From the NCBI GenBank assembly GCA_934101595.1, contig CAKORR010000001.1:107558-171557 (forward strand): a stretch of 64,000 nucleotides of DNA, given 5' to 3'. Positions 2,555 to 52,003 of this stretch are shown here, piece by piece; position 1 is the first letter of the stretch, and each line of letters opens with the position of its first letter. The position numbers were made by a program, and so were the translations under genes. The stretch is from an uncultured Bacilli bacterium (GTDB lineage Bacteria; Bacillota_I; Bacilli_A; RF39; UBA660). The notes under the pieces were generated by a model. The model had not been told where the DNA came from. It did not search any database and saw nothing but the letters and a program-made list of their open reading frames with translations.

Positions 2555-2606
2555 TCAAAAAACTCCTTTCATACCTTTATTGGTGCAAAAAGAGTTTTTT
2601 TATACA

Positions 2607-3290
2607 TTATAATCTCATTAATGATTTAAGTTTTTTAATAACCTTCTTTTCTATTCTCGAAATATAAGATTGAGAAATACCAAGCATCTCAGCAACTTCT
2701 TTTTGAGTGTATTCTTCCGTATTATTAAGTCCATAACGAAGGGTCATTATTTCCTTATCTCTACCCTCTAATTTTTTCACCTCCTCTTTTAATATTTCTA
2801 AATCTAAATTATGTTCAAATTCTTTGTGAACTATGTCACTATCAGTTCCAAGTATATCTTCCAAATGTAATTCGTTACCTTCCGCATCATAATTAAGAGA
2901 ATCTTCTAGGCTAATCTCAGTTTTTCTTTTCTTGTTTTTTCTTAAGAACATTAATATTTCATTGGCTATACATCTTGATGCGTATGTAGCTAATTTAATA
3001 TTTTTGTCAATTTTATAAGTGTTTATTCCTTTAATTAATCCGATTGAACCAATACTAACTAAATCTTCAATGTCATAGCCAGTATTTTCATATTTTTTGG
3101 CTAAAAAAACTACCAGCCTTAAATTATGTTCAATAAGAATATTTTTAGCTTCTTCATCTCCTTTTTTAGCGGCAATTAAATATTTCAACTCATCTTCTTT
3201 ATCCAAAGGTGGAGGTAACTTATCAGTACTTCCCACAAAGAAGCATTCATTGTATTTCTTTTTTAAATATTCTATTATTTTTTTAAGCAT
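2607..3290 (-). CDS. sigE: mother-cell sigma factor SigE (pro-sigma-E)
   Basis: 227 aa sigma-70 family protein with an N-terminal pro-sequence. Directly downstream of spoIIGA. Confidence 0.85.
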   Translation of the reverse strand: MLKKIIEYLKKKYNECFFVGSTDKLPPPLDKEDELKYLIAAKKGDEEAKNILIEHNLRLVVFLAKKYENTGYDIEDLVSIGSIGLIKGINTYKIDKNIKLATYASRCIANEILMFLRKNKKRKTEISLEDSLNYDAEGNELHLEDILGTDSDIVHKEFEHNLDLEILKEEVKKLEGRDKEIMTLRYGLNNTEEYTQKEVAEMLGISQSYISRIEKKVIKKLKSLMRL

Positions 3291-4113
3291 TAATCTCCTC
3301 CATCATTCTATAATTAAGCAAACATTCAACACCATCAATCGTAATATTTTCCTCAATTGTTCCAATTAAAATATTATTAAACGGATGATTTTTAATTAAA
3401 AATTGAGATGGTTTATAACATTTTATTAATGAATTTTTATTAACTGTTTTAATTGGCACATACATTGGACTACGATTATGAATAGCGCTTTTAATGATTT
3501 CTCTATTTACTAAAACGATTGCTTTATTAGTAATGGGGTCCTTTAACTTGTTTCCCGTATCTAAAAAGCCTATTAAATTAAATTTTTCTCCGTACAAAAA
3601 CAACTCAACATCATAGTAATAATTATAATTATTTTTTAATTCTCTGGATTGCTTTATATATAAATACAAAAATAATGGCATTATTAAGATAATTAAATAA
3701 AGATTTACTTTTAAGCCATTTTTACTTGCGACAAGTCCCTTAAATTCATAGGAAAAACTTGTATTAATAAAATATACCGCCCCTGCAAAAATTGTGCTTA
3801 CCATATATAAATAACTCATATTTTTAAAAAAATAACGCCACGAACGAAAGCCAAAAGCAATTAAGATCATAAAAACGCCTATTATTAATTTATATATGAA
3901 TAAATTAAAATTATTAAGTGGTATTAAGAGTAAAAATATACTCAATGCTCCACATAAAGATGAAAGTAATAATCTTTTTATTTTAGTTTTTCTTTTTAAA
4001 ATATATTTTACTGTTATTAAAAGCATTAAATCAATAAGAAGATTAAGTAAGAATAAAACATCTAAGTATATTACCATAATATCACCAAAATTATTATATA
4101 AAAAAAGCAACAT
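3283..4113 (-). CDS. spoIIGA: sigma-E processing aspartic peptidase SpoIIGA
   Basis: 276 aa with an N-terminal polytopic membrane domain. C-terminal domain has FLDTGN, the aspartic-protease DTG signature of SpoIIGA. Position between ftsZ and sigE is the expected one. Confidence 0.8.
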   Translation of the reverse strand: MLLFLYNNFGDIMVIYLDVLFLLNLLIDLMLLITVKYILKRKTKIKRLLLSSLCGALSIFLLLIPLNNFNLFIYKLIIGVFMILIAFGFRSWRYFFKNMSYLYMVSTIFAGAVYFINTSFSYEFKGLVASKNGLKVNLYLIILIMPLFLYLYIKQSRELKNNYNYYYDVELFLYGEKFNLIGFLDTGNKLKDPITNKAIVLVNREIIKSAIHNRSPMYVPIKTVNKNSLIKCYKPSQFLIKNHPFNNILIGTIEENITIDGVECLLNYRMMEEINA

Positions 4114-4138
4114 AAATTATGTCGCTTTAACAACTATT

Positions 4139-5212
4139 TTAAAAATCGTCTCTATTTCTTAAGAATGCTGGAATATCTAAATCATCAGCAGAGTCTGTGA
4201 CATTACGACGTTTAGGTAACTCATCAGTTACTTTTTTTGGTGGTTGTTCATCACCAGCAACAACGTCTTCATCAAAACCTGTAGCAATAACAGTTACGAT
4301 AACTTCATCAGTTAAATTTTCATTTTTAATTGCTCCGAATATAATGTTTACATCGCTATTAGCAGCTTCTCTAACTGTTTCAACTGCATCTTCAATTTCA
4401 AATAATGTTAAATTATTTCCACCTGTTACGTTAACAATGGCATTAGTAGCCCCATCAATTGTTGCTTCCAAAAGTGAATTAGCAACTGCTTGGCGAGCAG
4501 CTTCGATAGCTCTATTTTCACCAGCATTGCATCCAATACCGATAATTGCACTTCCACTTTTTTCCATGACTGCTTTAACATCAGCAAAGTCTAGGTTAAT
4601 AACTCCTGTTACAGCAATTAAATCAGAAATTGATTGGACACCTCTATGTAAAACATTATCTACTTCTTTAAATGCCTGCTCAAAGCTTGTAGTCTTGTCA
4701 ATAATGTCTCTTAGTCTATCGTTTGGAATAATTATTAATGTATCAACATGTTGCTTTAACTCGTCTAAACCCATTAAGGCATTTTCCATACGACGTTTTC
4801 CTTCAAATCTAAAAGGCTTAGTAACAATGCCTACAGTTAGTGCTCCTAGTTCTTGAGCAATTTCTGCAATTATTGGAGCAGCTCCAGTACCAGTTCCTCC
4901 GCCTAATCCACAAGCTATGAAAACCATGTCCGCGCCACGTAATTGTTCTTCTAATTCTGTTTTACTTTCTAAAGCTGCTGCTCTTCCTATTTCAGGATTG
5001 GCCCCAGCTCCTAAACCATCAGTTATGTTTGCGCCAATTTGAATTTTGTTTTCGGCATGAGAAGCATTTAACACTTGCAAATCAGTATTAACTACTATAA
5101 ACTCTACACCCTTAACTCCCTCATCAATCATTCGGTTAACAGCGTTACATCCGCCTCCACCTACACCAACAACTTTAATTTTGGCAATTTGATCCATTTG
5201 TAATCCGTTCAT
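4139..5212 (-). CDS. ftsZ: cell division GTPase FtsZ
   Basis: Tubulin signature [24 protein letters not shown], and a C-terminal DIPAFLR tail. Confidence 0.95.
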
Positions 5213-5224
5213 GCTACACTCTCC

Positions 5225-6469
5225 TTAATTGTCGAAAAAATATCCAAATAATTTACCTAGTATTGAATTTTCAGATATATTAATTTTCTTTGATAAACCA
5301 CTAAATTCTTCTTGCTCTTCTAAAGTGAAGATAGAATAATCTTTGTTTTTTAATTTTAATCTACTATTATAATATTTTATCATACCAACACATGTTGAGT
5401 ATTTATTATTTCTAACCCCTAATTCAAAAACTTTTTTTAACCTTGCTCTTGTTCCGTAAACATCTTCCAAAACAAGTTCAAAATCTTGTGTTTCTGTTAC
5501 TCCCCCTGTGACCATTATATAACTAATTTCTTTTTTTGTTAAGAGATTTATTTGTTTTTTGGTTAAATTTAATATTTCTTCTAATCTGCTCATCACTATT
5601 TCAGAAGCATCATATTGATTAATTTTTACTTCATCACCAAACTTATCAGTTAATGTCATACTCTCACTTGGCTCAGCAAGTCTATTGTGTGCTAAGGCTA
5701 GTTTTTCCTTAACTAATCTTGCATTTAATCTCGTTAATTTATAAACATACGCCAAATCATTTTCTATGTTCGCTCCGCCTATATCAATAACTTCACTATT
5801 TGTTAATATTCCACGGTTGAAAACAGAAACAGTGGTCGTTTCGCTTCCAATATTTATAATTGCACATGGTTCTTTATCAGATTCTTTAGTTTTGAATTCA
5901 TAATAATCTCCAAGTGGCGATGTTGCAATATCAATTATTGAAACGCCTATTTTGTTTAAACAAGCATTAATGGCCGCAACATTTTTCTTTGGCACTGTTG
6001 TTACAACTGCTTTTACGCTCAACTTATTAGCACTCATATTTAAAGGATTTTTAATTATTTCTGAGTCATTAATAGCAAAATTAGTAGGCATAATAGTCAC
6101 AAGTTCAACAGTTGGACCAATCTTATTTTCTAAGGCATTTTTTAAAGCATTTAATATATCATTGGAAGTTACCAATCCATTTTCACTATTAACGCTAACT
6201 CTGCCTTCCGTTAAAAAATAATCAGCCATATAAGAAGGTACACTTGCAATAACTTCTTTTACTTTTAAACCCAACATTGTTTCAACTTCATTAAAAACTT
6301 CACTTAATGCTTCGGTTGCACTTTCACTATTAACTACATAACCCTTTTTTATTCCACGACTAGGAGTTTCAACAGAAGCTAAAATATTTAATTTATTACG
6401 AAATACTTCTCCGACTACAAGCTTTATTGCATCAGAACCGATATCTAAACTGGCTATTATTCTTCGCAT
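5225..6469 (-). CDS. ftsA: cell division protein FtsA
   Basis: 414 aa actin-fold protein beginning MRRIIASLDIGSDAIKLVVGE. Immediately upstream of ftsZ. Confidence 0.9.
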   Translation of the reverse strand: MRRIIASLDIGSDAIKLVVGEVFRNKLNILASVETPSRGIKKGYVVNSESATEALSEVFNEVETMLGLKVKEVIASVPSYMADYFLTEGRVSVNSENGLVTSNDILNALKNALENKIGPTVELVTIMPTNFAINDSEIIKNPLNMSANKLSVKAVVTTVPKKNVAAINACLNKIGVSIIDIATSPLGDYYEFKTKESDKEPCAIINIGSETTTVSVFNRGILTNSEVIDIGGANIENDLAYVYKLTRLNARLVKEKLALAHNRLAEPSESMTLTDKFGDEVKINQYDASEIVMSRLEEILNLTKKQINLLTKKEISYIMVTGGVTETQDFELVLEDVYGTRARLKKVFELGVRNNKYSTCVGMIKYYNSRLKLKNKDYSIFTLEEQEEFSGLSKKINISENSILGKLFGYFFDN

Positions 6470-34559: not shown

Positions 34560-36086
34560 TTAACTAATATTTAAATCTGCAAATGTATTTGTCGAATAAT
34601 ATCCAAATTTAACGTTATTTTGATTTAAACTTGTATTACCTTCGAAAGGTTTATACTTAGTAGAACTAAGTGTTATTGTTTTATTAATTGTTAAACTATT
34701 TAATTTATTATTTTTAAATGCCGATGAATCAATGGTTACTTCGGAGTTTATCTCTAACTCTGTTATGTTATTACTAGAAAAAGCGTTGTCGCCAATTTCT
34801 TTAAGAGTTGTCGGTAAATAAACATTTGTTAATCCACAATTGGAAAACATTTGCTGTGCTATTTTTTCTAGCCCTTCAGGTAATTCCAATTTAGATATTT
34901 TAATCCCAGGAAAGTATTCATAATCTCCTAAATTCAATTGTTTTAATTTACTTAAATCCACAAGATTGTAAAAACAATCTGTTCTATCTGAGTCATACAT
35001 GCAACTTGCAGAGTTATATAAACCAATTATATAATCTGTACCCATTACTACTTCGGTAGGATTATTTCCAGAATAGTCTGTGCCGCTTTTTAAATACATA
35101 AACTTTATACCATTGTATACGCTGCTGCCATCGTCATTTGTATAGTCGTCGCCAATGCCAATCATTGAATTTGGAATACTAAACAAATCTTTGCTTACTT
35201 CATCAGATAATTCACTATATCTTATAATGCTTTTCGTTTCATAACCACTTTCGCTCGCATCAAATTGATTTACTGCAGCACTTAACGTATTATAATTAGC
35301 TTCGTCAAGAATTACATAAACGTCTTTTGATTCATTTGTGTCTTGATAATATAAAACATTTCCCTTTTGAAAAGCCGGGTTAATCATATTTTTTGGCGTT
35401 ATTCCTTTAATTGTTTCGGGAACTATTATATTTTCACCACATTTATAATTGTTATAGTAACCCAAAAGTCCATTTGATCCTATCAAGAAACAATCTTCGC
35501 TACTTTCTTTTATCCCCTTTTGTGTTTGGCTTGCTACTACTACTACTTTACTATCAAACACCTTATTTTGTTCGGTCATTGGTGTATTTTCATCCATCCA
35601 CATTTTTATACTATGAGTTTTGCTTTTATCCTTTTCACTTGTTCCTAATACTCCAACATATAGTTCTTTATCAAATCTTGCATTTGCCTCTTTTTTGACA
35701 TTTACTGTTTCATATTTAGTAAGAGCTCTTCCCACTTTATTATCTAGAGCTATTTTTATATTACTTTCATCTATATAATTTGTATTTGTGCTATTTGTTA
35801 ATGCCTCTAAATTTACAGAATATGATATTTCATTATTACAATTATTTGTTACGGTAAATTGATATCCGCTTCCTTTTATTCCTTCGCTATCTGGTGTTGG
35901 AAATGTATTATTTAGGGCTATTCCATCTCCATTATCACTAAAGTTTATATCCAAACATGACGAAGTTAATGTATTTACTCCACTTTGACTTTTTGTTACT
36001 TGCCATAACGCATATGTTCCTGCTACTACTAGCGTTATTAATAACATTACTATTATGCTTGTTAAAATTATCTTCCTCTTATTCAT
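34560..36086 (-). CDS. exported surface protein, paralog 2 (TasA-like signal + LRR), driven by a poly-G-containing promoter
   Basis: 508 aa. Residues 5-225 are identical to paralog 1, then a mosaic divergent middle and a similar LRR C-terminus. RBS GAAGGTAGG. Confidence 0.6.
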   Translation of the reverse strand: MNKRKIILTSIIVMLLITLVVAGTYALWQVTKSQSGVNTLTSSCLDINFSDNGDGIALNNTFPTPDSEGIKGSGYQFTVTNNCNNEISYSVNLEALTNSTNTNYIDESNIKIALDNKVGRALTKYETVNVKKEANARFDKELYVGVLGTSEKDKSKTHSIKMWMDENTPMTEQNKVFDSKVVVVASQTQKGIKESSEDCFLIGSNGLLGYYNNYKCGENIIVPETIKGITPKNMINPAFQKGNVLYYQDTNESKDVYVILDEANYNTLSAAVNQFDASESGYETKSIIRYSELSDEVSKDLFSIPNSMIGIGDDYTNDDGSSVYNGIKFMYLKSGTDYSGNNPTEVVMGTDYIIGLYNSASCMYDSDRTDCFYNLVDLSKLKQLNLGDYEYFPGIKISKLELPEGLEKIAQQMFSNCGLTNVYLPTTLKEIGDNAFSSNNITELEINSEVTIDSSAFKNNKLNSLTINKTITLSSTKYKPFEGNTSLNQNNVKFGYYSTNTFADLNIS

Positions 36087-36106: not shown

Positions 36107-36137
36107 ACTATACCCCCCCCCCCGCGTATTTTGTCAA
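36107..36137 (-). promoter_or_regulatory. promoter with an 11-nt G homopolymer inside the -35/-10 spacer (putative phase-variation switch)
   Basis: Minus-strand reading is TTGACA (reverse complement of 36132-36137), AAATACGC, G×11 (plus-strand C run 36113-36123), then TATAGT (reverse complement of 36107-36112). Spacer is 19 nt. ATG lies 21 nt further downstream. Confidence 0.6.
36113..36123. repeat. homopolymeric C11 (G11 on the coding strand) tract
   Basis: Counted directly: C at 36113-36123. An 11-nt G/C run in a genome of very low GC. Confidence 0.9.
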
Positions 36138-36164
36138 GCAAAAAAACACGATATATTCGTGTTT
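36138..36164 (-). terminator. intrinsic terminator downstream of the 36177-36548 gene, abutting the -35 box
   Basis: Minus-strand hairpin AAACACG-AATATAT-CGTGTTT followed by TTTTTT, then GCTTGACA. Confidence 0.55.
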
Positions 36165-36176
36165 ACATATGCAAAT

Positions 36177-36548
36177 CTAATTATTATGAGCACTATCATT
36201 ATTTAGTGCCATTGATTCAATCTTAATACTATCACTAGCATTTTCAATGTCTTTTGAAACTTCTGTATCAGTACCTTGTTCAGCTTCTACAGTGTCGTTA
36301 ATAAACTTTGTCATATCGGCAAGTTCGTTTTGTAATGTTTCAATAATAGATTGTGATCCACTATTACAAAAGCTATTAAAATCTTCAAAAAATCTTTCGC
36401 TTTTTGGTCCGATCCATGATTTGTTTTCTTCAAGATTTTTAAAGTCTTTTAAAATGGTTTCAATATTTACGATAGTTGAATTCATATAGTCTTTTAACTT
36501 TGATGATATATTTAAAACTTCATCTGTATTTATATATTTTTCTTGCAT
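36177..36548 (-). CDS. WXG100-like small helical protein (W-I-G-P-K-S subtype)
   Basis: 123 aa with a central ...ENKSWIGPKSERFFEDF. Homologous to the 40493-40810 protein (YWLGPKSAIFAEKI). Acidic C-terminal tail. Confidence 0.6.
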   Translation of the reverse strand: MQEKYINTDEVLNISSKLKDYMNSTIVNIETILKDFKNLEENKSWIGPKSERFFEDFNSFCNSGSQSIIETLQNELADMTKFINDTVEAEQGTDTEVSKDIENASDSIKIESMALNNDSAHNN

Positions 36549-36555
36549 AATTCAC

Positions 36556-36825
36556 CTACCTATAAATATCTATTTGTTGATACTCTTTAATATATCTTGA
36601 AAGTTTTTCATTATAATTTTTTAATCCATTAACTACTTTTCTTAGATATACAAGGGTTTCTCCATTTATGTGCCTATCGAATGCTCTTTGATATTTACTA
36701 CTCCAAGCTGTGGTATTACCTGTTAAGTTTTGAATTAATGGAATATTTTCTTGCACTCTTTGGATTAATGTAGCGATATCTTGACAAGCATCAGAAACAT
36801 CTTGATATTTAATTTTTGTATTCAT
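36556..36825 (-). CDS. small helical WXG100-like partner protein (degenerate W-S-S)
   Basis: 89 aa, ...TAWSSKYQRAFDRHINGETLVYLRKVV... Homologous to the 40823-41095 protein (GEWKGKYQEEYDNHINGKTEKYLRKLV). Confidence 0.5.
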   Translation of the reverse strand: MNTKIKYQDVSDACQDIATLIQRVQENIPLIQNLTGNTTAWSSKYQRAFDRHINGETLVYLRKVVNGLKNYNEKLSRYIKEYQQIDIYR

Positions 36826-36840
36826 AATAATCTCCCTTTT

Positions 36841-38511
36841 TTATGAAGCTTTATTTGCTTTCGCATAAATGTTGCCTGTATTTATATAAGAACCTTTTTC
36901 TAATCTTGTATCAACCCCTTGTTTCTTTTGATAATAATTGGCAATCTCATCAGCACTTTTACCTGCTAACTCTTCTTCAGTAAAGTCTGTTTTAGCATAT
37001 TCCAAATGCAAATGGGTTCCAGATGATCGGCCTGTACTTCCCATTATACCAATTGGACTATCGTCTGTTATAACATCGCCGGCTTTAACTTTAGGAGTCT
37101 CTCTTAAGTGGGCATATCTACTCATATAATACGATATAGTTCCATCATCATTTATTACCTCGTGAAGCATAACAACTTCATTACCATAGCCATAATTTGA
37201 ATGTCCTGAATAGACTACAACTCCCTCTTGGATAGGTTTTATAGAAACATTTTCTCGTGATCCCTCAGGAACATAATCACAGCCCCTATGGTCAAAATAA
37301 CCATTACCAGTGCCGTCTTCACTCCATCTCGAATCTATGTATGAACTAATTCTATATGCGTTATTTAATGGCAAATTTATATCTGTTTTTTCAAAAGAAG
37401 AGGCTTCAACGCTCCAACTTGATTTTGAAAGTTTTTCGTAAGAAGCTAATTTATTTATAACTAATGGCTCTATTTCTTCTTTCTCGGCATCAATATAAGT
37501 TTTAGTTACATTTCCTAAATCATTAGAAGCACCTTTTACAGTTGAAGCTAAACCAGGGATTATTATAACTTGGCCAACTTCTATTTGATTTGGGTTAGAA
37601 ATAGTATCTCTATTTGCTTCATATATTTCTTCCCAATCAACACCATACTTTTCAGCAATTTTACTTAATGAGTCACCGCTTGCAATAGTGTATTTCAAAG
37701 GCTCTGTTTTTTTCTCTCCTTCTACTTCCTCATTTAAAGTTTCATCTGCTAAATCTATTAAAACAACGTCTTCATTATTCTCATATTTTGTAATATTATC
37801 AATATGATTTTTACTTTTAACTATAACATCTGTAGCAGCACTTTTTATTTTCTCGATATTTTTTATGATAACACTTCTAAAAGTGCCAATTGGTTCTCTT
37901 ATTATTTTCGCTTTACCATTATACTTTGATATAACTTCCAAAGTACGATTATCATATGTTGAATTACCTAAAGCAGTAATTGTATTTTCACATATTGTAA
38001 TAAGATTTTCGAATAAAGTCGTAACGTTTTCTGCAAAATCTGTTTGGATGCCGAAAACTTCATTTCTTATCATGCCCTGAACTGCAGGTATATTCCAATA
38101 AATTTTAAATTCTTCTCGTAAAATACCAATTCTACGTTGAGTATCAATAAGTTTATTTTTAGCCCTATAATATTCTTGCATATAATGTTCCCATACGGAT
38201 GTCGAAGCCGTACCATCATTTACATGTTCTTTCATAACGGCACAATTATCAAGAGCATCCATAAATTGCTGAAGATCTATTTTTTCTTCTTCAACAAGTA
38301 TAACCATTTCATCTAATTTATTTATTTGATTGATTACATTATTAACAGATGGATATCCAACACTATTAACCATATCTCTTAACTTTTGGCCAACTTGAAA
38401 AGCAACAAACCCCACCCAAGGATCGCTTTCGCTATCACCAAAAAGAGAATTCGGAGCAATTCTTCGAGAAGTTAAAATCCAATTTTGTAAATCAGTTGTA
38501 TTTATGGCCAT
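36841..38511 (-). CDS. LXG/WXG-like N-terminal domain + LysM + M23 (LytM-type) metalloendopeptidase (candidate effector I)
   Basis: 556 aa with no signal peptide. N-terminus has SLFGDSESDPWVGFVAF (L-x-G and W-x-G). LysM at YTIASGDSLSKIAEKYGVDWEEIYEANRD...GQVIIIPG. M23 motifs FDHRGCD (HxxxD) and GTHLHLEY (HxH) are intact. Confidence 0.65.
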   Translation of the reverse strand: MAINTTDLQNWILTSRRIAPNSLFGDSESDPWVGFVAFQVGQKLRDMVNSVGYPSVNNVINQINKLDEMVILVEEEKIDLQQFMDALDNCAVMKEHVNDGTASTSVWEHYMQEYYRAKNKLIDTQRRIGILREEFKIYWNIPAVQGMIRNEVFGIQTDFAENVTTLFENLITICENTITALGNSTYDNRTLEVISKYNGKAKIIREPIGTFRSVIIKNIEKIKSAATDVIVKSKNHIDNITKYENNEDVVLIDLADETLNEEVEGEKKTEPLKYTIASGDSLSKIAEKYGVDWEEIYEANRDTISNPNQIEVGQVIIIPGLASTVKGASNDLGNVTKTYIDAEKEEIEPLVINKLASYEKLSKSSWSVEASSFEKTDINLPLNNAYRISSYIDSRWSEDGTGNGYFDHRGCDYVPEGSRENVSIKPIQEGVVVYSGHSNYGYGNEVVMLHEVINDDGTISYYMSRYAHLRETPKVKAGDVITDDSPIGIMGSTGRSSGTHLHLEYAKTDFTEEELAGKSADEIANYYQKKQGVDTRLEKGSYINTGNIYAKANKAS

Positions 38512-38595
38512 ATTACCACGTCTCTTTCCCTATTCTTTATCATGTTAATTATAATATTATTCTCACATTAAATCAATTATAAAATTAAATACATT

Positions 38596-38623
38596 AAAAT
38601 AAAAATTACAGGGCACCCTGTAA
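38596..38623 (-). terminator. GC-rich intrinsic terminator between the LysM-SLT and LysM-M23 genes
   Basis: Minus-strand hairpin TTACAGGG-TG-CCCTGTAA (plus 38606-38623) followed by TTTTTATTTT. A TTGATT-17nt-TATAAT promoter candidate follows at about 38540-38575. Confidence 0.55.
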
Positions 38624-38627
38624 TCTT

Positions 38628-40484
38628 CTACATTATATCTCGTAACATTTCCGTATACTTCTTATTTAAACGATTAGCTAGATCTTGTTTAGTTATTACT
38701 CCATCGCCATCCACGTCTAAACCCCTATTATAAGAATAATAGCTTTCGCCTTTGACACATAAAGTATTTTTCTTGGCTCTACCTGGTAAGAACATAACCG
38801 CATATAATGTACCAGCATCTAATTCTTCGCCATTTTTGTAAGGACTAGCGCTTTTAATATATTTTTCAACTAAATCAAGTTGATCTGTTGCGGACATATT
38901 GGCTATCTGTTCAGTCGTGTAACCAAGATTACGAGCAGTGCTTGGCATAAATTGGATAAGGCCAACAGCTCTACTACTGCTTTCAATATGAGATGGATCA
39001 AGAGCACATTCTGAATACATAAGAGCAAGTAAATCATTTGGATCACAATTAACATTTTTAGCGACTTGTTCTAGTTTAGCACTAAATCCTGGCTCGAATC
39101 TGTCATCCAAACAACTTGCTAAAGCACTATCTAATACTTCTACTTTAGGAGAGCTAGTATTAGTACTTGTCTGAGCCGCGGATACTCCTTTTTCATTTGC
39201 TCTTTTATGGGCAGCTTCATTTCTATCTTTAGTTGCTTGTTCTCTTTCACTAATTTCCTTAGTATCACTTTCTTTAGATACAGCTTCTTTAACTTCTGTT
39301 TTTTCTTTAACCTCAGATTTTTTATCATCCTTACCAGATTCTGTTTCGTCAGTCTTTTTAGTTGCCACACTAACAGAACCAATGGCTGCAGCACCAATTA
39401 CGCCTTCAAATACTGGAGGGTTAATATCAAATGCTTCCTCTTCTTTTTCCTCAAACTTAAGACCTGTATATTTGCTAATAACATCTGCGGCACTTACAGG
39501 ATCATTACTTTCTTCTTTTTGACCTGGAATTGTAAGCACTTGTCCAGGATATATCAAGTTTGGATTATCGATCTTATCAGCGTTTGCTTCATAAAGCTCT
39601 TTCCAGTCAATTCCATATTTCGCTGCAATTTTAATTAAATAGTCACCTTTTTCAACAACATATGTTCCGTGATTAGAAGATGTACTATCACTACTAGTCC
39701 TTTTTCTTTCTTTAGCATATTCAAAGTCATTACGATATTCAAATTGTTTAATCTTGGCAAAATGATATTTTAACAAATTTAATTGGCGAGTTGCTTCATC
39801 AAGACATTTTTTAATATTAACTTTTATATTATTACACGCTGAATAGAAAAAACCACTAACTTGATAATCACTAGAAGATAAATCGTCATTGCCACTTGGA
39901 ATTTGAAAATCACTTGACCTCATGGAATTCATATTCAACATTTGCATATTTAAATATTTTACTATATTATTTAAGGGCTCAATGACTTGCTTCTCAAAAG
40001 TTGCTAAGTTTATCTCATATTTATCTGAATTATAGTTTTCCCATGGAGTAACCTCTATTTCCACAATTGGAGTTAAAACAGAAACTATTTCTTCTTTCTT
40101 TTTGATGATTTTCTTTTTTAATTCTTTAAGTGTCGAAGATATTATAATCTTTTGTTGAGCCAACATATAAACGTCCGCATGATCTTTATATGCAATTTCT
40201 TCATCTATAGTTTTGCACGCTTTGTATTTACTTTCATAAGATAACTTTAGGGCAAGTAAACCATCGGTTGGATTCATTACTAAATCAACCGCTTTGCTAT
40301 AATCTTTTAGCTGGTACATAATGCCTTCATTTTGGATATAGCTCAACATTCTATCAATAATATAGCATCTCCGCTTTAATTCAGCTGCTCTTTTTCCGTA
40401 AAACATCAAAGTTGCCGGATTAAATCTTTTAGATATCTGATATGCAAGAAAAATATTATTTGTATCTATTTTTACTTTAACCAT
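38628..40484 (-). CDS. LXG-like N-terminal domain + LysM + family-1 lytic transglycosylase (SLT) (candidate effector H)
   Basis: 618 aa with no signal peptide. N-terminus has ...LMFYGKRAAELKRRCYII (compare F-x-G-K-x-A-x-x-I-K of LXG domains). LysM at YVVEKGDYLIKIAAKYGIDWKELYEANAD...GQVLTIPG, then a K/E-rich low-complexity linker. The C-terminal SLT domain is about 70% identical to that of 25274-26167 (MYSECALDP...AVGLIQFMPSTARNLGY). Confidence 0.65.
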   Translation of the reverse strand: MVKVKIDTNNIFLAYQISKRFNPATLMFYGKRAAELKRRCYIIDRMLSYIQNEGIMYQLKDYSKAVDLVMNPTDGLLALKLSYESKYKACKTIDEEIAYKDHADVYMLAQQKIIISSTLKELKKKIIKKKEEIVSVLTPIVEIEVTPWENYNSDKYEINLATFEKQVIEPLNNIVKYLNMQMLNMNSMRSSDFQIPSGNDDLSSSDYQVSGFFYSACNNIKVNIKKCLDEATRQLNLLKYHFAKIKQFEYRNDFEYAKERKRTSSDSTSSNHGTYVVEKGDYLIKIAAKYGIDWKELYEANADKIDNPNLIYPGQVLTIPGQKEESNDPVSAADVISKYTGLKFEEKEEEAFDINPPVFEGVIGAAAIGSVSVATKKTDETESGKDDKKSEVKEKTEVKEAVSKESDTKEISEREQATKDRNEAAHKRANEKGVSAAQTSTNTSSPKVEVLDSALASCLDDRFEPGFSAKLEQVAKNVNCDPNDLLALMYSECALDPSHIESSSRAVGLIQFMPSTARNLGYTTEQIANMSATDQLDLVEKYIKSASPYKNGEELDAGTLYAVMFLPGRAKKNTLCVKGESYYSYNRGLDVDGDGVITKQDLANRLNKKYTEMLRDIM

Positions 40485-40492
40485 ACCTTCAC

Positions 40493-40810
40493 CTACTTTA
40501 CTGATTGTCCAATTGCGTCATCAGTTTCTTCAACTTGACCGCAGGCGTCTTTTATAAATTTTATTAATCCATCGAAATCACTTTCAACATTATCTAAAAT
40601 TGCTCCAGAGTTTTCATTTTTAGCAAAAAATTGAGCTATTTTCTCTGCAAAAATAGCAGATTTTGGACCAAGCCAATAATCGCTGGTTATTTTTTCATAT
40701 GATTGCTTTATAACATTAATATCAGTTAAAATTTCATTTTTCTTAGCGTTTAAAACATCTGCTTTGGCTAATAGTCTATCATAATCGACCATTTGGGTAT
40801 TATCGTTCAT
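40493..40810 (-). CDS. WXG100-like small helical protein (W-L-G-P-K-S subtype)
   Basis: 105 aa with a central SDYWLGPKSAIFAEKIAQFF. Confidence 0.6.
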   Translation of the reverse strand: MNDNTQMVDYDRLLAKADVLNAKKNEILTDINVIKQSYEKITSDYWLGPKSAIFAEKIAQFFAKNENSGAILDNVESDFDGLIKFIKDACGQVEETDDAIGQSVK

Positions 40811-40822
40811 TTCTTCACCTAC

Positions 40823-41095
40823 TTATTGATCTATTTTTTGGTAACCTTGCATAGTTTTTTCTAAATAATTATTAAAATCTTCAAAACAGGTTACCAATTT
40901 TCTTAAATATTTTTCTGTTTTACCATTAATATGATTGTCATATTCCTCTTGATATTTGCCTTTCCATTCACCATTAGAAATGGCATCGTTTAACATAGAA
41001 TCAATACTAAGTTGTAGTTGTGAAATATATCTTTTAATAAGATTAATTTCATTTCTAATTTCAGTATAATGAACAGAAACCTTCTCATTATTCAT
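40823..41095 (-). CDS. small helical WXG100-like partner protein (W-K-G)
   Basis: The track ORF extends to 41197, but the likely start is ATG at 41093-41095 (MNNEKVSVHYTEIRNE...), preceded by AAGGTG. 90 aa with a central GEWKGKYQEEY. The 5' extension would overlap the mutS terminator. Confidence 0.5.
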   Translation of the reverse strand: MNNEKVSVHYTEIRNEINLIKRYISQLQLSIDSMLNDAISNGEWKGKYQEEYDNHINGKTEKYLRKLVTCFEDFNNYLEKTMQGYQKIDQ

Positions 41096-41182
41096 TCTAT
41101 CACACACCTTACTATAATAATAATAGCATATTATTATTCGATTTTTTAATTTATACTTACATTTAATGTAAATAATATGTAT

Positions 41183-41209
41183 ATAAAAAAGAAACATTTT
41201 TAATGTTTC
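41183..41209 (-). terminator. intrinsic terminator overlapping the mutS stop codon
   Basis: Minus-strand hairpin GAAACAT-TAAAA-ATGTTTC followed by TTTTTT. Confidence 0.5.
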
Positions 41210-43755
41210 TTTCTCTCTTCTTTAAGTTTATATAATATATTTAAGGCATCAATTGGGGTTGTATTTAAAATATCAAGTCTATCTATTTCTTCTAAAATTT
41301 TGTTAGATTCTTGTAAGGTATTATCAAAAGACATAGACAATTGAACATTATTTTCTTTTTTCTTTTTAGTTGGATTATTCTCGTATTTTTTTAATATTTC
41401 ATCAGCTCTTTTGATAAGTTCATCTGGCATGCCCGCAAGTTTAGCTACATGAATACCATAGCTTTTATCAATGGCACCATCTTTGACTTTATGCAGAAAA
41501 ACTATTTTTTCATTTTCTTCATAAGCTCTAACATGAACGTTTTTAATAGATGGATAAACTTTTTCTAATGACGTAAGTTCATGGTAATGAGTTGAAAATA
41601 ATGTTTTACAACCTATATGTTTAGTAATATATTCAAGTATTGCTTCGGCAAGGCTCATTCCATCGAATGTAGCTGTACCTCTACCTAACTCATCAAAAAG
41701 TATTAAACTATTTTTGGTAGCGTTTACTATAGCATTTTTTGCCTCGGTCATTTCAACCATGAATGTAGATGATCCACTAACTAAATCATCACTGGCTCCA
41801 ATTCTAGTAAAAATCTGATCTATTAGGGGCAATGTCGCACTTTTAGCTGGGACAAATGAGCCCATTTGAGCCATTATAACAATAATTGCAAGCTGTCTCA
41901 TGTATGTTGATTTACCTGACATATTTGGACCGGTTATTAATAAAGTATTTATATTGCTATCCATAACGATATCATTAGGAACATACTCATCTTTAATTAC
42001 TTTCTCTACAACAGGATGCCTTCCATCACGAACGATTAATTTAAATTCATCTGAAAAGGTTGGACGTACAAAGTTGTATTCTTCCGCACAATGAGCTAGT
42101 GATGTTATGGCATCTAATTCACTAATTATGTATGCAGCTTTTTTTAAATCTAAAATTTCACTTTTAATTTTGTCTTTAATTTCTAAAAACAAATTATATT
42201 CTAACTCAATAATATTTTCTTCAGCGTTTAAAATAAGTGATTCTTTTTCCTTTAAAAGTGGCGAAATATATCTTTCACAATTACTTAAAGTTTGTCTTCT
42301 TTCCCATTTGAATTCATCTTTTACGTAACTGGCTTGACCTTTAGATACTTCTATGTAATATCCAAATACTTTGTTATAGCCAACTTTAAGATTTTTTATC
42401 CCTGTTTGTTCTTTAACCTCTTTTTCAAAATTAGCTAAAAAGTCTTTTCCTCCACTACGAACTTTTTTTAATTCATCTAATTCTTTATTATAGCCATCTT
42501 TTATTAAATATCCCTCTTTTAGAGAAACTGGAGGATTTTCATAAATACCTTTTTCTAGTAATTCATATAAATTATCAAACGTTTTAAATTCATAGTTAAA
42601 TTTTAAATCTTTAATTATTTTACTAATATCAGGAAATACTTTTAAACTAGTTTTTAATTGTAACAAATCACGAGCATTTATATTTCCACAAGTGATTTTT
42701 CCACACAATCTTTCTATATCATAAACCATGTCTAATTTATTTCTTAATTCATCTTTTAAAATAAACTCATTATTTAAAGTTTCAATTTTATCATAACGTT
42801 CATTAATTAAATTAACATTTTTTAATGGATTAAGTAACCAATTTTTTAAAAGACGACTGCCCATCGCTGTTTTAGTTTTATCAATCAACCAAATTAGCGA
42901 ATATGTTCTTTCTTTTAAGCGAAGAGTTTCCACAAGTTCTAGGTTTCTAATGGTATGAACATCCATTATTAGATAATCGTCTTTATTTATTACATTAACT
43001 TTATCGATATGATCAAGAATCTTTAACTCGCGTACTACTAGATAATACAAAAGATGCTTAACACCCATTTTAGCTCGTGCATCACTTACTGAATCAACTA
43101 TTTTTTCATACTTTTCTTCTAGAAATTTATCACTAATAGATACTTCAATTCCATAGTTGTTTTTAAGTGTATCTATAAGCTCTACCTGTAAATTATTTTC
43201 CAAAATAACTTCTTTAACATTTAGACTTAATAATTCACTAATTAACTTTGTCAAATCATGAGTAATAGATAAAGAATTAATAACTCCCGTCGAAATATCC
43301 GCGTAAGTAATCATATAGATATAATTAAAGTCAAGCACACTAGCAATGTAACTATTATCATGTTCACTTAGTAATTCATAGTCTGCAATAGTTCCCTTAC
43401 TTAATACTTCAACAACACCTCGTTTAACCATTCCTTTAGTTGTTTTAGGATCTTCCAATTGCTCACATATTGCAACTTTATATCCCTTATCAATCAACTT
43501 TTCAAGGTAAGGCTTTACTGAATGAAAAGGAACGCCACACATCGGAATTCGCTCAGAAAGTCCGGCATTTTTTCCAGTTAATGTTAATTCAAGTTCTTTA
43601 GATGCTGTTATACCATCTTCAAAAAAAAGTTCATAAAAGTCTCCCAAGCGAAAAAAAAGCAATTCTTCTGGATATTCGTTTTTAATTTCAATATATTGCT
43701 TCATCATTGGGCTTAATTTTTCAAAATCTACATCGTTTCTTTTCATATTTACCAC
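41200..43755 (-). CDS. mutS: DNA mismatch repair protein MutS
   Basis: 851 aa with an N-terminal mismatch-binding domain (...MKQYIEIKNEYPEELLFFRLGDFYELFFED...), Walker A GPNMSGKST, and a C-terminal HTH. Confidence 0.9.
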   Translation of the reverse strand: MVNMKRNDVDFEKLSPMMKQYIEIKNEYPEELLFFRLGDFYELFFEDGITASKELELTLTGKNAGLSERIPMCGVPFHSVKPYLEKLIDKGYKVAICEQLEDPKTTKGMVKRGVVEVLSKGTIADYELLSEHDNSYIASVLDFNYIYMITYADISTGVINSLSITHDLTKLISELLSLNVKEVILENNLQVELIDTLKNNYGIEVSISDKFLEEKYEKIVDSVSDARAKMGVKHLLYYLVVRELKILDHIDKVNVINKDDYLIMDVHTIRNLELVETLRLKERTYSLIWLIDKTKTAMGSRLLKNWLLNPLKNVNLINERYDKIETLNNEFILKDELRNKLDMVYDIERLCGKITCGNINARDLLQLKTSLKVFPDISKIIKDLKFNYEFKTFDNLYELLEKGIYENPPVSLKEGYLIKDGYNKELDELKKVRSGGKDFLANFEKEVKEQTGIKNLKVGYNKVFGYYIEVSKGQASYVKDEFKWERRQTLSNCERYISPLLKEKESLILNAEENIIELEYNLFLEIKDKIKSEILDLKKAAYIISELDAITSLAHCAEEYNFVRPTFSDEFKLIVRDGRHPVVEKVIKDEYVPNDIVMDSNINTLLITGPNMSGKSTYMRQLAIIVIMAQMGSFVPAKSATLPLIDQIFTRIGASDDLVSGSSTFMVEMTEAKNAIVNATKNSLILFDELGRGTATFDGMSLAEAILEYITKHIGCKTLFSTHYHELTSLEKVYPSIKNVHVRAYEENEKIVFLHKVKDGAIDKSYGIHVAKLAGMPDELIKRADEILKKYENNPTKKKKENNVQLSMSFDNTLQESNKILEEIDRLDILNTTPIDALNILYKLKEERKKH

Positions 43756-43803: not shown

Positions 43804-44580
43804 TTATCTTCTTAATATCATAGCTATACTATCATTATATATTTCATTTCTATCATAATCATAACTACTATCAGTACTTTTATCTAAATAATATAATTCT
43901 TTATAAGCCTCTACTAATTCTTTTTCCTCTTTATAAGGAGTTACTTTTAAAGGATCATAGTTACTATATTTTAAATTAAAATCACCATAAGTATAATCAA
44001 ATCTATCTGCCCTAACAACTTTACAATAGTCTTTTAAAGCATTTAGAATAATTTCATATCCTTCATTATTTAAATAATGATTAATATAATTAATAGCACT
44101 CAAAACATTATTATCTTTCAAATATTCACAGTAAGTTTCTCTTTCTTTTTTAGAAAAACGACACTTTGATATTTCTTTTTCATTAGTATAAGCCCAATTT
44201 AATGCTTCATCAATTTCCATTTCCGATAACTCTTTTAAATTATCTTCATTTGTCATTTCCTCATAATAAGAAGTTTTTTTCTTAACTATTTCTAAAACTA
44301 TATCATTAAACTCGTTTGAATACCTAGCATATTTTAATACTTTATTAATTAAAGAAATACGTTCTTTATTAAAAACATAAGGAAACAAAGAAAGATCTGG
44401 GCTATAATAACAATCTTCTATTAATTCTTCAAAAGATGTGTATTCTTTTTCCTTACTTTTACATGCACTAGTTATTAAAAGTTGAGTAAATAAAAGAGAT
44501 ATGGCTATTACTTTTTTTAATTTCAATATAATCACCTTTTTTGCAAAGAATATATTAGCAGAGTGCGAATATAAAGTCAA
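43804..44580 (-). CDS. hypothetical lipoprotein
   Basis: 258 aa with an N-terminal ...LLFTQLLITSAC lipobox-like signal and a Y/E/K-rich sequence. True start uncertain. Confidence 0.45.
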   Translation of the reverse strand: MTLYSHSANIFFAKKVIILKLKKVIAISLLFTQLLITSACKSKEKEYTSFEELIEDCYYSPDLSLFPYVFNKERISLINKVLKYARYSNEFNDIVLEIVKKKTSYYEEMTNEDNLKELSEMEIDEALNWAYTNEKEISKCRFSKKERETYCEYLKDNNVLSAINYINHYLNNEGYEIILNALKDYCKVVRADRFDYTYGDFNLKYSNYDPLKVTPYKEEKELVEAYKELYYLDKSTDSSYDYDRNEIYNDSIAMILRR

Positions 44581-50130: not shown

Positions 50131-51951
50131 TTAAGGCTCAAATTTAATTGTTGCATTGCTACTCCAATTTTCACCTAAAGTCATGCCATCTAGATTTGCT
50201 CTTTTCATAATTATTGTGTCTTTTTCTATAGCACCAGCAAATGCCTTTTCGCCAATAATCTTAACATTTTTAGGCACGACTATAGAAGTTAATAAAAAGT
50301 CGTTTTCACTATCTTCATCACTAAAAACAAATTGATATCCGCCAATTTCGATTAATGATTCTGGCAAATTTACATTTTTTATAAATACGCTTTGAAATGA
50401 TTGTTCACTTATTTTAGTAATGCCTTCGCTTATATTAACAGTTGTAACATAGGATAGAAAAAATTGGCCGCTTAAAACCGATCCGATTACTCCGCCAACA
50501 GTTGTATCATCAACAGTTTTATCTTTATAGTCAATCACAGTATTATCCTTAGATGGTTTAATTGTTAGATTATTAATTGAACTCATACCAAATGTTTGTG
50601 AATTGTATCCTTTTTCTATAGTGCCTGTAAGCGAATTATAAACTGTTAATTTATCAAGTTTGCTAAACAAAAAAGCCCCCGTACCTATTTTTATGGCATT
50701 ATCATTAGCCCCAAAATTAATATAAGTTAATCCAAAATCTAAAGAATTATCAAAATTATCTTTACCATTAGCAGTTGCCTTATCATAATTTGCTGAAATT
50801 TTATCAAGACCAGCTTCGGTCGTACCATCATAAAGGGTAAATGCATATGGTTCTATTTCTTCTAAGTAAATTGCTTTTGAAAAATCTACTCCTTTAATAG
50901 TAAATATATTGTCCTTATAAGGAGTTTGAGCTAATAAAAATTCATCCTCGCCATTCTCATCCTTGGCAATAATGCCATACTTACCTTCTTCTGTTTCACT
51001 CGCTGTTGTTGGAAGTTCTGATTCGTTATTTATGAAAAAGTTATTTGAGGCTTCTTCTTCAGATACTTTTTTAAAAAACTCTTCTATTCTACTCTTGGCT
51101 TTGTCATTTTTAACTATTATATAATACTTTATTCCTGTAGTCTTATCTTCTTTTTCATCATACACCGAAGAACTTAAATCTTCCCAAAGCAAAAAATCTG
51201 TAACATCTTTTTCTGGTCTAAATGCGTTAGTAGCGATCTTTTTTACTTTGACATTGTTAACGCTTGCAGGTATTACAACCATTTCTCCACAAGAATCATC
51301 ATATTTAGAAATAATTCCATTAGAATCTATTGTAAAACATTTTTCCGGAGTTGCTAATAACCCTGGATTATCATTTAAAATTCCTTGACCACCAGTTATA
51401 AATATTTTTCCATTAAAGGCTTTTCCCTGTTCCGTAATAGGAGCTCTTTCATCAATCCATATTTTTAATAAATGCGTATTGGTTTCTTTTCCCTTGATTT
51501 CAGCAGTTTTTATTTCTTTTGATAAAATATATGTATCAGGGCCTTCGATATCATTTAAGCTATTAAATGTTCCTAACACATCGTCATCAATTGCTAATGC
51601 AACTGCTGATGCACTTAAACTTGCTAGCCTTTCATCTTCTAATGATTCAAGTCCTATTACATAACTTATTGGCGTATCACAATTATTAGTTACGGTAAAT
51701 GTATATCCTGTTAATTCTTTTACGGCATCAACCGCATTCATAGGCCAACTATTTTCAAGGTTAATAACACTACCTTCACCAGTTTTGTTAAGATCAAGAT
51801 CTAGGCATGCCGCAATCATACTATTTTTATCTTTTTGCGTTTTAGTTACTTGCCATAAGGCATAAGTCGAAGCAATTATAATTAGAAGTACCAGAGCAAT
51901 TCCTATAGATACCCCTATAATTTTGTTATGTTTATTATTTTCACTTTTCAT
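50131..51951 (-). CDS. exported surface protein, paralog 4 (TasA-like signal + LRR), driven by a poly-G-containing promoter
   Basis: 606 aa. N-terminus ...LLIIIASTYALWQVTKTQKDKNS. In tandem with paralog 3. RBS TAGGATGG. Confidence 0.6.
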   Translation of the reverse strand: MKSENNKHNKIIGVSIGIALVLLIIIASTYALWQVTKTQKDKNSMIAACLDLDLNKTGEGSVINLENSWPMNAVDAVKELTGYTFTVTNNCDTPISYVIGLESLEDERLASLSASAVALAIDDDVLGTFNSLNDIEGPDTYILSKEIKTAEIKGKETNTHLLKIWIDERAPITEQGKAFNGKIFITGGQGILNDNPGLLATPEKCFTIDSNGIISKYDDSCGEMVVIPASVNNVKVKKIATNAFRPEKDVTDFLLWEDLSSSVYDEKEDKTTGIKYYIIVKNDKAKSRIEEFFKKVSEEEASNNFFINNESELPTTASETEEGKYGIIAKDENGEDEFLLAQTPYKDNIFTIKGVDFSKAIYLEEIEPYAFTLYDGTTEAGLDKISANYDKATANGKDNFDNSLDFGLTYINFGANDNAIKIGTGAFLFSKLDKLTVYNSLTGTIEKGYNSQTFGMSSINNLTIKPSKDNTVIDYKDKTVDDTTVGGVIGSVLSGQFFLSYVTTVNISEGITKISEQSFQSVFIKNVNLPESLIEIGGYQFVFSDEDSENDFLLTSIVVPKNVKIIGEKAFAGAIEKDTIIMKRANLDGMTLGENWSSNATIKFEP

Positions 51952-51973: not shown

Positions 51974-52003
51974 ACTATACCCCCCCCCGGAGCATTTTGT
52001 CAA
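51974..52003 (-). promoter_or_regulatory. promoter with a 9-nt G homopolymer inside the -35/-10 spacer (putative phase-variation switch)
   Basis: Minus-strand reading is TTGACA (reverse complement of 51998-52003), AAATGCTCC, G×9 (plus-strand C run 51980-51988), then TATAGT (reverse complement of 51974-51979). Spacer is 18 nt. The flanks are conserved with the 36107-36137 cassette. Confidence 0.6.
51980..51988. repeat. homopolymeric C9 (G9 on the coding strand) tract
   Basis: Counted directly: C at 51980-51988. Confidence 0.9.

Follow-up and report, generated by a model that had tools for sequence, protein, structure and literature searches.

Two pairs of small genes, each beside a gene for a large predicted cell-wall hydrolase without a signal peptide, raise the question of how such enzymes might leave the cell and what the small proteins contribute. 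The genes lie in a 64,000-nucleotide (nt) stretch of DNA from an uncultured Bacilli bacterium (assembly GCA_934101595.1, contig CAKORR010000001.1, positions 107,558 to 171,557), here called the window, to which all coordinates without a locus label refer. The first-pass annotation of this DNA had described the small proteins as ordered pairs of WXG100-like escorts, comparable to the Lap proteins of the type VII secretion system b (T7SSb). From the analysis reported here we favour, with moderate confidence, the reading that the locus holds two independent, self-contained tripartite export modules of the T7SS (type VII secretion system) kind, whose cargoes are peptidoglycan hydrolases and probably autolysins.

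Organization of the locus

In the window, mutS (41200-43755, minus strand) is followed by A1, B1, a 618-amino-acid (aa) gene, a 556-aa gene, A2 and B2, all on the minus strand. The four small open reading frames (ORFs) lie where the first-pass annotation had placed them and contain all the motifs it had quoted. Here, A1 and A2 are assigned to family A and B1 and B2 to family B, and the two large proteins are termed effectors 1 and 2. Downstream of B2 come a BspA-type leucine-rich repeat (LRR) gene and then nusB and xseA. From mutS onwards, the features are as follows.

41185-41210, minus strand: putative mutS terminator, an AT-rich hairpin with a T-run that overlaps the mutS stop codon, read from the sequence
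41120-41149, minus strand: promoter-like site of the A1-B1-SLT operon, sigma-A type (TTAAAA, 18 nt, TG-n-TATTAT), from a consensus scan only
40823-41095, minus strand: A1, 90 aa, predicted WXG100-like hairpin of family A
40493-40810, minus strand: B1, 105 aa, WXG100-like protein of family B
38628-40484, minus strand: effector 1, 618 aa, N-domain, LysM and SLT
38601-38628, minus strand: intrinsic terminator at the end of the first operon, 12-bp stem and T-run
38548-38576, minus strand: promoter-like site of the M23-A2-B2 operon, sigma-A type (TTGATT, 17 nt, TATAAT)
36841-38511, minus strand: effector 2, 556 aa, N-domain, LysM and M23
36556-36825, minus strand: A2, 89 aa, family A
36177-36548, minus strand: B2, 123 aa, family B
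36144-36164, minus strand: intrinsic terminator at the end of the M23-A2-B2 operon, preceding the LRR gene's own promoter

The locus consists of two operons, A1-B1-effector followed by effector-A2-B2, as deduced from the short intergenic gaps, the promoter-like sites and the terminators at 38601-38628 and 36144-36164. In the first operon, 12 nt separate A1 from B1 and 8 nt separate B1 from the 618-aa gene; in the second, A2 begins 15 nt after the stop codon of the 556-aa gene, preceded by a AAGGGAGA ribosome-binding site, and B2 follows A2 after 7 nt. The hairpin and T-run at the mutS stop codon would isolate the first module from mutS. A 124-aa version of A1 starting at 41197 was rejected as over-extended, since the family alignment, an AAGGTG ribosome-binding site and the position of the mutS terminator place the true start at 41095.

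Family A, a divergent relative of WXG100

Pairwise alignment gave 33% identity over 82 aa between A1 and A2 (E = 9e-16) and 23% over 99 aa between B1 and B2 (E = 1e-8); the homology between the pairs, already proposed in the first-pass annotation, thus lies far beyond chance. Its division of the small proteins into two distinct subfamilies also held, as profile-profile comparison of A with B reached a probability of only 35-43%, with the W aligned on the W. On this evidence A and B are two separate families with no more than a remote likeness.

A1 carries a W44-K-G46 turn (40958-40966), the motif YQEEYDNHING and a C-terminal Y85-Q-K-I-D89 (40829-40843); the corresponding elements of A2 are W41-S-S43 (36697-36705), YQRAFDRHING and Y82-Q-Q-I-D86 (36568-36582). 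Family A is rare: when 1.84 billion proteins were searched exhaustively with a profile of A1 and A2, only 21 cluster representatives were recovered, and word-indexed homologue searches with A1, with the N-domain of the M23 effector or with an alignment of 19 family A sequences found almost nothing outside the same species. Members are 87-115 aa long and share the turn signature W-x-S-K-Y-Q-K-x-F-D-x-H and, at the extreme C-terminus, Y-[KQ]-x-[IL]-D. W44, Y85 and D89 (A1 numbering) are invariant in all 19 aligned sequences. Two positions beyond the invariant W, 13 of them have S, three have G, two have A and one has T. The turn of A2 had been read as degenerate, with its G lost, but W-x-S is the norm of the family; W-S-S in A2 is typical and W-K-G in A1 the exception, given that G occurs in only 3/19 members.

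Against the Pfam WXG100 model (PF06013), A1 scored 22.8 bits (E = 1.1e-4), under the cut-off of 27.3, and A2 gave no match; across the family, six of the 19 members reached E < 0.01 (best E = 3.9e-7). The NCBIfam model TIGR03930 scored 18.3 bits on family A of the window, compared with a cut-off of 44.85, and ESAT6_2 was also sub-threshold. Because the scores remain sub-threshold, we regard family A as a divergent relative of WXG100 and not as an annotated member. PDB matches of the family A profile include the LXG chain of TelA (8gmh_B, E = 9.3e-5) and EsxB of Bacillus anthracis (E = 3.6e-3). Modelled with AlphaFold2 from seven sequences, A1 is predicted to be a hairpin with helices at residues 10-40 and 47-89 and a predicted local distance difference test score (pLDDT) of 88.5. 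The leading matches in a Foldseek search with this model were almost all WXG100 proteins (EsxB, EsxA, a group B Streptococcus WXG100 protein, CFP10-ESAT6 and EsxGH), TelA-LXG or PE25, with template modelling (TM) scores of 0.65-0.77.

The YxxxD of family A resembles the export arm of T7SS substrates, a C-terminal YxxxD/E motif with a conserved acidic residue, and its Y and D are present in all 19 members.

Related loci and synteny

Gene contexts were recovered for ten further family A genes. The arrangements that bear on the modules are listed below, with the letter L marking locus labels.

L004, L073 and L075: mutS, LysM-M23 protein (584-596 aa), A, B, nusB
L077 (NCBI metagenome-assembled genome GCA_045650425.1): mutS, LysM-M23, A, B, LysM-glucosaminidase, A, B, nusB
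L078: mutS, A, B, LysM-M23, nusB
L005: M23 protein, A, B, second effector-like gene; short contig
L072: M23 protein, A, B; short contig that ends within B
L071: canonical WXG100 gene, A, B; 1-kb contig

All six related loci with enough flank sit between mutS and nusB, and the order A then B, which the first-pass annotation had noticed in the window, is kept in all related loci recovered. The commonest arrangement is effector-A-B (8 modules in 7 loci). Every A-B pair with enough flank adjoins a LysM-hydrolase effector, orthologues of effector 2 adjoin A-B pairs in seven other loci, and there is one pair per effector, with two effectors and two pairs both in the window and in L077. The effector of the second L077 module (L077:6145-7908) has LysM and a glucosaminidase domain in place of SLT; both lineages therefore pair an M23 endopeptidase with a glycan-cleaving enzyme that has its own A-B pair. 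In L071, the gene directly upstream of A-B (L071:2-256, WKGQSADSY) is a canonical WXG100 gene, scoring 29.3 bits and thus above the Pfam cut-off of 27.3. No candidate immunity gene was found in any locus, and the modules of the relatives abut mutS and nusB directly.

The regulatory layout is also shared. A terminator followed by a promoter lies 3' of mutS in L004, L073, L075, L077 and L078, and in the relatives a terminator and a promoter-like site (TTGAnn / TGnTATnAT) lie ahead of every module. By consensus matches only, the promoters of all nine modules are sigma-A-like (TTGAnn, TGnTATnAT) and not of the sigma-E, -K, -F or -G type; a sporulation-sigma promoter was considered for the modules, and none was seen in this comparison.

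The distribution of family A was further probed with a degenerate DNA pattern for W-x3-[YF]-Q-x2-[FY]-x2-[HY]-x29-Y-x3-D. The pattern picks up A1 and A2 in the window and had no match in shuffled sequence; as only about 13 of the 19 known members fit it, absence of a match is not proof. Among 185,579 species-representative genomes it gave just 12 chance matches with stop codons; in the JGI metagenomes its sole real match was one contig of the same species, and in viral contigs it had no real match. A phage or plasmid origin was rejected, family A having no matches in phage, plasmid and viral collections. The locus is apparently inherited vertically and not carried on a mobile element.

Family B and its fusions

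B1 contains the motif YW46LGPKS (W46-L-G48-P-K at 40667-40675) and B2 the motif SW45IGPKS (W45-I-G47-P-K at 36408-36416). In 11 of 11 family B sequences the WxG turn and a D near the C-terminus are invariant, and a conserved F also lies near the C-terminus. B1 matched the Pfam WXG100 model below threshold (E = 2.5e-3) and B2 gave no match, while the B protein of L071 matched both WXG100 (E = 5e-4, again sub-threshold) and T7SS_signal (E = 1.6e-3). The best PDB matches of the family B profile are individually marginal (ESAT-6-like MAB_3113, 0.014; EsxB, 0.036-0.057), and its top matches are enriched in ESAT-6, EsxB and EsxA structures with the WxG aligned. Taken with the sub-threshold Pfam and NCBIfam matches, the PDB profile matches and the confident hairpin model of A1, this supports the WXG100 likeness of both families that the first-pass annotation had suggested.

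B2 ends in a tail of about 25 aa, at a position that in relatives is taken up by a linker and cargo. B is the N-terminal domain of a longer protein in L004, L072, L073, L075 and the second module of L077; where the gene is complete, this protein measures 295-324 aa, and it continues through a Pro/Thr/Ser-rich linker into a C-terminal domain of about 150 aa. The long B genes are the following.

L004:3368-4342, long B gene
L073:10279-11247, long B gene
L075:10297-11184, long B gene
L077:8210-9100, long B gene
L072:1467-2021, long B gene

The C-terminal domain of these proteins had no match in Pfam, NCBIfam, PHROGs or the PDB; it may bear some likeness to wall-binding domains of the 3D or double-psi beta-barrel kind. 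Judged from its domain order, the fusion of B to cargo would be the architecture of a secreted carrier and not of a cytoplasmic chaperone.

Effectors with LysM and catalytic domains

Both effectors of the window begin with a putatively helical region of about 265 aa, followed by LysM and then by a catalytic domain.

39690-40484, minus strand: N-domain of effector 1, with the turn F28-Y-G30
39525-39662, minus strand: LysM of effector 1
38892-39065, minus strand: SLT domain of effector 1
37717-38511, minus strand: N-domain of effector 2, with the turn W32-V-G34 (38410-38418)
37555-37692, minus strand: LysM of effector 2
36991-37290, minus strand: M23 domain of effector 2

In effector 1, Pfam identified LysM (E = 1.1e-15) and SLT (PF01464, E = 3.4e-7), the latter at 30.3 bits against a cut-off of 21.3 and with only the first half of the model covered; its catalytic Glu is putative and assumed from a 'YSEC' context. 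In effector 2, LysM (E = 2.6e-15) is followed by M23 (PF01551, E = 1.2e-14; 54.7 bits, cut-off 28.7), whose zinc-ligand motifs are intact (HxxxD as H408RGCD and HxH as H500LH).

Hydropathy analysis detected no signal peptide, hydrophobic N-terminus or convincing membrane span in either window effector; in effector 1, the maximum 19-residue hydropathy is 1.43, none of it N-terminal. Taken over the window and the relatives, the effectors, in which LysM accompanies SLT, M23 or glucosaminidase domains, have N-termini that are not hydrophobic. A [W/F]xG turn occurs at residues 22-62 in nine of nine effector N-domains. The first-pass annotation had noted that pair 2 has no LXG gene after it, which implies one after pair 1; the effectors adjacent to the pairs do not match the LXG model. 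Comparison of the effector N-domain with the A or B profiles gave nothing significant.

As a separate observation, the motif H-x3-I-x2-[FYL]-E-[NY] closes the effector N-domain just before LysM in the window and in all relatives; effector 2 has it as NHIDNITKYENN (window 37780-37809) and effector 1 as YHFAKIKQFEYR (window 39735-39764).

Comparison with known systems

The closest system is that of the LXG effectors and Lap proteins of Streptococcus intermedius (TelC, TelD and TelA; Lap1/Lap2, DUF3130/DUF3958; Lap3/Lap4, DUF5344/DUF5082; PMC9600955, PMC10801868). LXG effectors require two cognate small helical partners, and the tripartite signal described for T7SS substrates consists of a hydrophobic-x-G turn on the large partner, the acidic C-terminal motif of a small hairpin beside this turn, and a second small partner at the other end (PMC9600955, PMC10801868). 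The acidic residue of the C-terminal export arm is required for export (PMC10801868). In line with this organization, each module of the window has ordered, adjacent genes for two different small helical WXG100-like proteins next to the gene of a large protein, with one pair per effector. The large protein again joins an N-terminal helical domain (about 200-260 aa) with a hydrophobic-x-G turn to an enzymatic domain, and one of the partners bears an acidic C-terminal motif (FxxxD in Lap1, NKxxDD in Lap3, YxxxD in family A); the TelA LXG chain matched by the family A profile adds to the likeness.

There are also differences. The motif of family A is a true YxxxD and lies at the very C-terminus, the turn of the effectors is WxG and not LxG, the pair usually lies downstream of its effector, and B is often fused to a cargo of its own. 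The cargo consists of LysM-anchored hydrolases, no immunity gene accompanies it, and the locus is fixed between housekeeping genes, unlike a variable toxin island. Lap1 is defined by DUF3130/TIGR04197 (the SACOL2603 family) together with DxxTxxxGN and FxxxD motifs (PMC9600955), and no A or B protein matched DUF3130/TIGR04197. The models of Lap2, Lap3 and Lap4, including DUF3958 and DUF5082, gave no match for B and, for A, a single weak DUF5344 match among 19 members (E = 0.0085); two family A members also had YwqH-like matches (1.3e-3 and 3.7e-3). The earlier comparison with Lap pairs is thus upheld for the ordered pairs beside large, signal-peptide-less proteins with extracytoplasmic domains, but not for membership in the Lap families. 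Considering the one-to-one genetic pairing with effectors, A and B may function as Lap-type targeting factors.

Similarities also extend to EsxB/EsxA (CFP-10/ESAT-6) and PE/PPE, in which the signal is split, with YxxxD/E on one hairpin and WxG on the other, and in which the two small genes form a bicistronic unit; according to Foldseek, EsxB/EsxA, EsxGH and PE25 also match the predicted hairpin of A1. This contrasts with the setting of the Esx and PE/PPE proteins of T7SSa in that the present lineage is a low-GC relative of Firmicutes and not an actinobacterium, the partners are tied to enzymatic cargo, family A is mostly W-x-S and no ESX-type core genes were seen in the regions examined. As a whole, the motif set is closer to PE/PPE or EsxB/EsxA than to Lap.

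Two kinds of wall hydrolase were also compared. EssH of Staphylococcus aureus, which is associated with the T7SSb, has a Sec signal peptide and a CHAP domain and is not a T7SS substrate (PMC13059805). The window effectors may resemble it as wall hydrolases functionally tied to type VII secretion, possibly opening the wall locally; they differ in having no Sec signal peptide, LysM with SLT or M23 instead of CHAP, and WXG-like partners. Firmicutes also have Sec-dependent autolysins with LysM, for instance AcmA and AtlA (glucosaminidase and LysM), and LytM-type M23 enzymes, which carry cleavable signal peptides. Their combinations of catalytic and LysM domains recur in the window effectors, and both groups probably remodel the wall of the cell that makes them. 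In the effectors, a helical domain of about 265 aa with a WxG turn, together with two small partners, takes the place of the signal peptide.

Host lineage and neighbouring genes

The GC content is 28%. An ftsA-ftsZ-spoIIGA-sigE-sigG cluster lies at about 1778-6469 of the window, and SpoIVB, SpoIVA and SpoIIID-like genes occur near the locus in relatives (L073, L075 and L077, downstream of nusB). Both sets of genes mark the host as an endospore former; it belongs to an uncultured low-GC gut lineage known from metagenomes only.

Several further features of the surroundings were recorded. Upstream of mutS, L073 and L078 carry N_methyl (prepilin-type) genes and large unannotated ORFs, a cluster that looks like a pseudopilus or competence-type cluster and not like a T7SS. 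Between murF and mutS, the window has a 258-aa ORF (43804-44580, minus strand) whose N-terminus looks like that of a lipoprotein (LLITSAC) and for which no Pfam family is recorded; it is also present in L001 and L006 of the same species. On the minus strand, G tracts of 11 nt (G11, 36113-36123) and 9 nt (G9, 51980-51988) lie inside near-identical promoter spacers (TTGACA, 8-9 nt, G tract, TATAGT). The G11 promoter precedes the BspA-type LRR gene (34560-36086) and the G9 promoter a 606-aa ORF (50131-51951). As the spacers measure 19 and 18 nt, slippage could switch expression; the G11 tract was identical in length in three assemblies (the window, L001 and L003), with no variation observed. The LRR gene itself is missing from the mutS-nusB interval of the relatives and is a lineage-specific insertion between the module terminator and nusB.

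Proposed mechanism

If the locus does hold two tripartite export modules, A and B would bind the helical N-domain of their cognate effector and form an elongated helical bundle. The YxxxD of A would come to lie beside a WxG turn to make up a composite export arm, with WxG supplied by the effector N-domain and by B; PE-PPE, EsxB-EsxA and LXG-Lap1/3-Lap2/4 offer parallels for such an arm. Recognition and export of the complex would fall to an EssC-type ATPase whose gene would lie in another part of the genome. As the effectors have no Sec signals, they would reach the wall by a type VII-style route, and once exported they would bind peptidoglycan via LysM and cleave its glycan strands or its cross-links. 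The fixed synteny, the housekeeping-type promoters, the conserved M23 cargo and the lack of immunity genes make remodelling of the cell's own wall likelier than interbacterial killing. The enzymes might act as autolysins, in cell separation or in clearing a path for the secretion machine.

A number of points weigh against this reading. No T7SS core gene (EssC, EsaA or EssB) was found in 84 kb (the 64-kb window and 10 kb on each side) or in the related loci, and in endospore formers mother-cell enzymes that act on the spore can lack signal peptides and yet need no special secretion. The A and B proteins of the window are all under the curated WXG100 cut-offs, the Foldseek E-values of the A1 model are weak (0.04-0.4, for helical hairpins), and coiled-coil proteins are also among the profile matches. 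Further, the effector N-domains match neither LXG (PF04740; six N-domains) nor PDB sequences or profiles, and an AlphaFold2 model of the 618-aa protein made without an alignment has a pLDDT of 39, so that the fold of the N-domain is unreadable from it.

Alternative explanations

The main rival dispenses with type VII secretion and makes A and B cytoplasmic helical partners, as stabilisers or inhibitors, of leaderless hydrolases that act after lysis or in sporulation, for instance in mother-cell lysis or in coat or cortex processing. It is in keeping with a host lineage that has sporulation genes near the locus, with the lack of T7SS core genes in the regions examined and with the coat-associated LysM enzymes without signal peptides of endospore formers, SafA, SleL and CwlJ. 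We nevertheless consider it doubtful: the nine module promoters are sigma-A-like (by consensus only), the invariant YxxxD and W/WxG turns are hard to explain in a mere inhibitor, a canonical WXG100 gene adjoins A-B in L071, and B is fused to cargo. This last property, found in L004, L072, L073, L075 and L077, is substrate-like rather than chaperone-like and would also suit an autonomous secreted A-B heterodimer of the EsxB/EsxA type, with the LysM hydrolases as separate co-substrates or wall-openers outside the complex. The YxxxD on A and the WxG on B mirror the division of labour between CFP-10 and ESAT-6 (PMC9600955), and Lap3 and Lap4 are themselves secreted (PMC10801868). Such a heterodimer seems unlikely to us, since the one-to-one pairing of effectors with A-B pairs in the window and in L077 is that of effector-specific targeting factors and the effectors' own WxG-type N-domain would need a YxxxD partner.

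Somewhat less probable again is that the modules are interbacterial weapons, namely bacteriolytic effectors delivered by a T7SS against competitors. Of the large T7SSb substrates that have been characterised, the majority are toxins against bacteria, TelC acting on the cell-wall precursor lipid II (PMC5555719, PMC9600955), and the catalytic cargo does differ between lineages, being SLT or glucosaminidase. However, no locus contains a candidate immunity gene, the locus is syntenic and has no phage, plasmid or viral-contig matches, and the M23 effector is conserved and not polymorphic. We give very little credence to the scenario of the first-pass annotation, with Lap-type escorts in both pairs, LXG toxins downstream of them, and pair 2 orphaned when the phase-variable LRR gene took the place of its toxin. 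An effector does follow pair 1, the order in L078 is A, B, M23, and the LRR gene is an insertion in that it is not in the mutS-nusB interval of relatives. On the other hand, A2 lies 15 nt downstream of the LysM-M23 gene within one promoter-to-terminator unit, the effector-A-B order recurs in the 8 modules noted above, nusB directly follows B in relatives and so leaves a lost toxin no room, and the Lap and LXG models had no matches. Pair 2 is therefore not orphaned and has the upstream M23 protein as its partner; M23-A-B is also the arrangement in L004, L005, L072, L073, L075 and L077.

Implications

Most large T7SSb substrates known so far are antibacterial toxins that are polymorphic and come with immunity genes in variable islands, and EssH, the one well-studied T7SSb-linked hydrolase, uses Sec. 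If the reading as tripartite export modules is true, a conserved chromosomal module would send LysM-anchored hydrolases out by a WXG100/YxxxD-type signal, and housekeeping remodelling of the wall would join the uses of type VII-style export. More tentatively, it is possible that this clade replaced the Sec signal peptides of its core autolysins, an M23 enzyme and a glycan-cleaving one, with a tripartite WxG/YxxxD signal made of a new N-domain family and two new WXG100-like families, encoded at the mutS-nusB housekeeping locus, and that B serves in addition as a secreted carrier of a further cargo domain. In that case, type VII-style secretion would be a housekeeping route for wall remodelling and not a weapon.

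Should these genomes encode no EssC, the signals would feed a different, undescribed exporter. If the reading as export modules holds, three unannotated families, A, B and the effector N-domain, would be added to the repertoire of substrates and targeting factors, and the two paralogous, presumably orthogonal modules in one locus would offer a compact natural system for partner specificity and the export arm.

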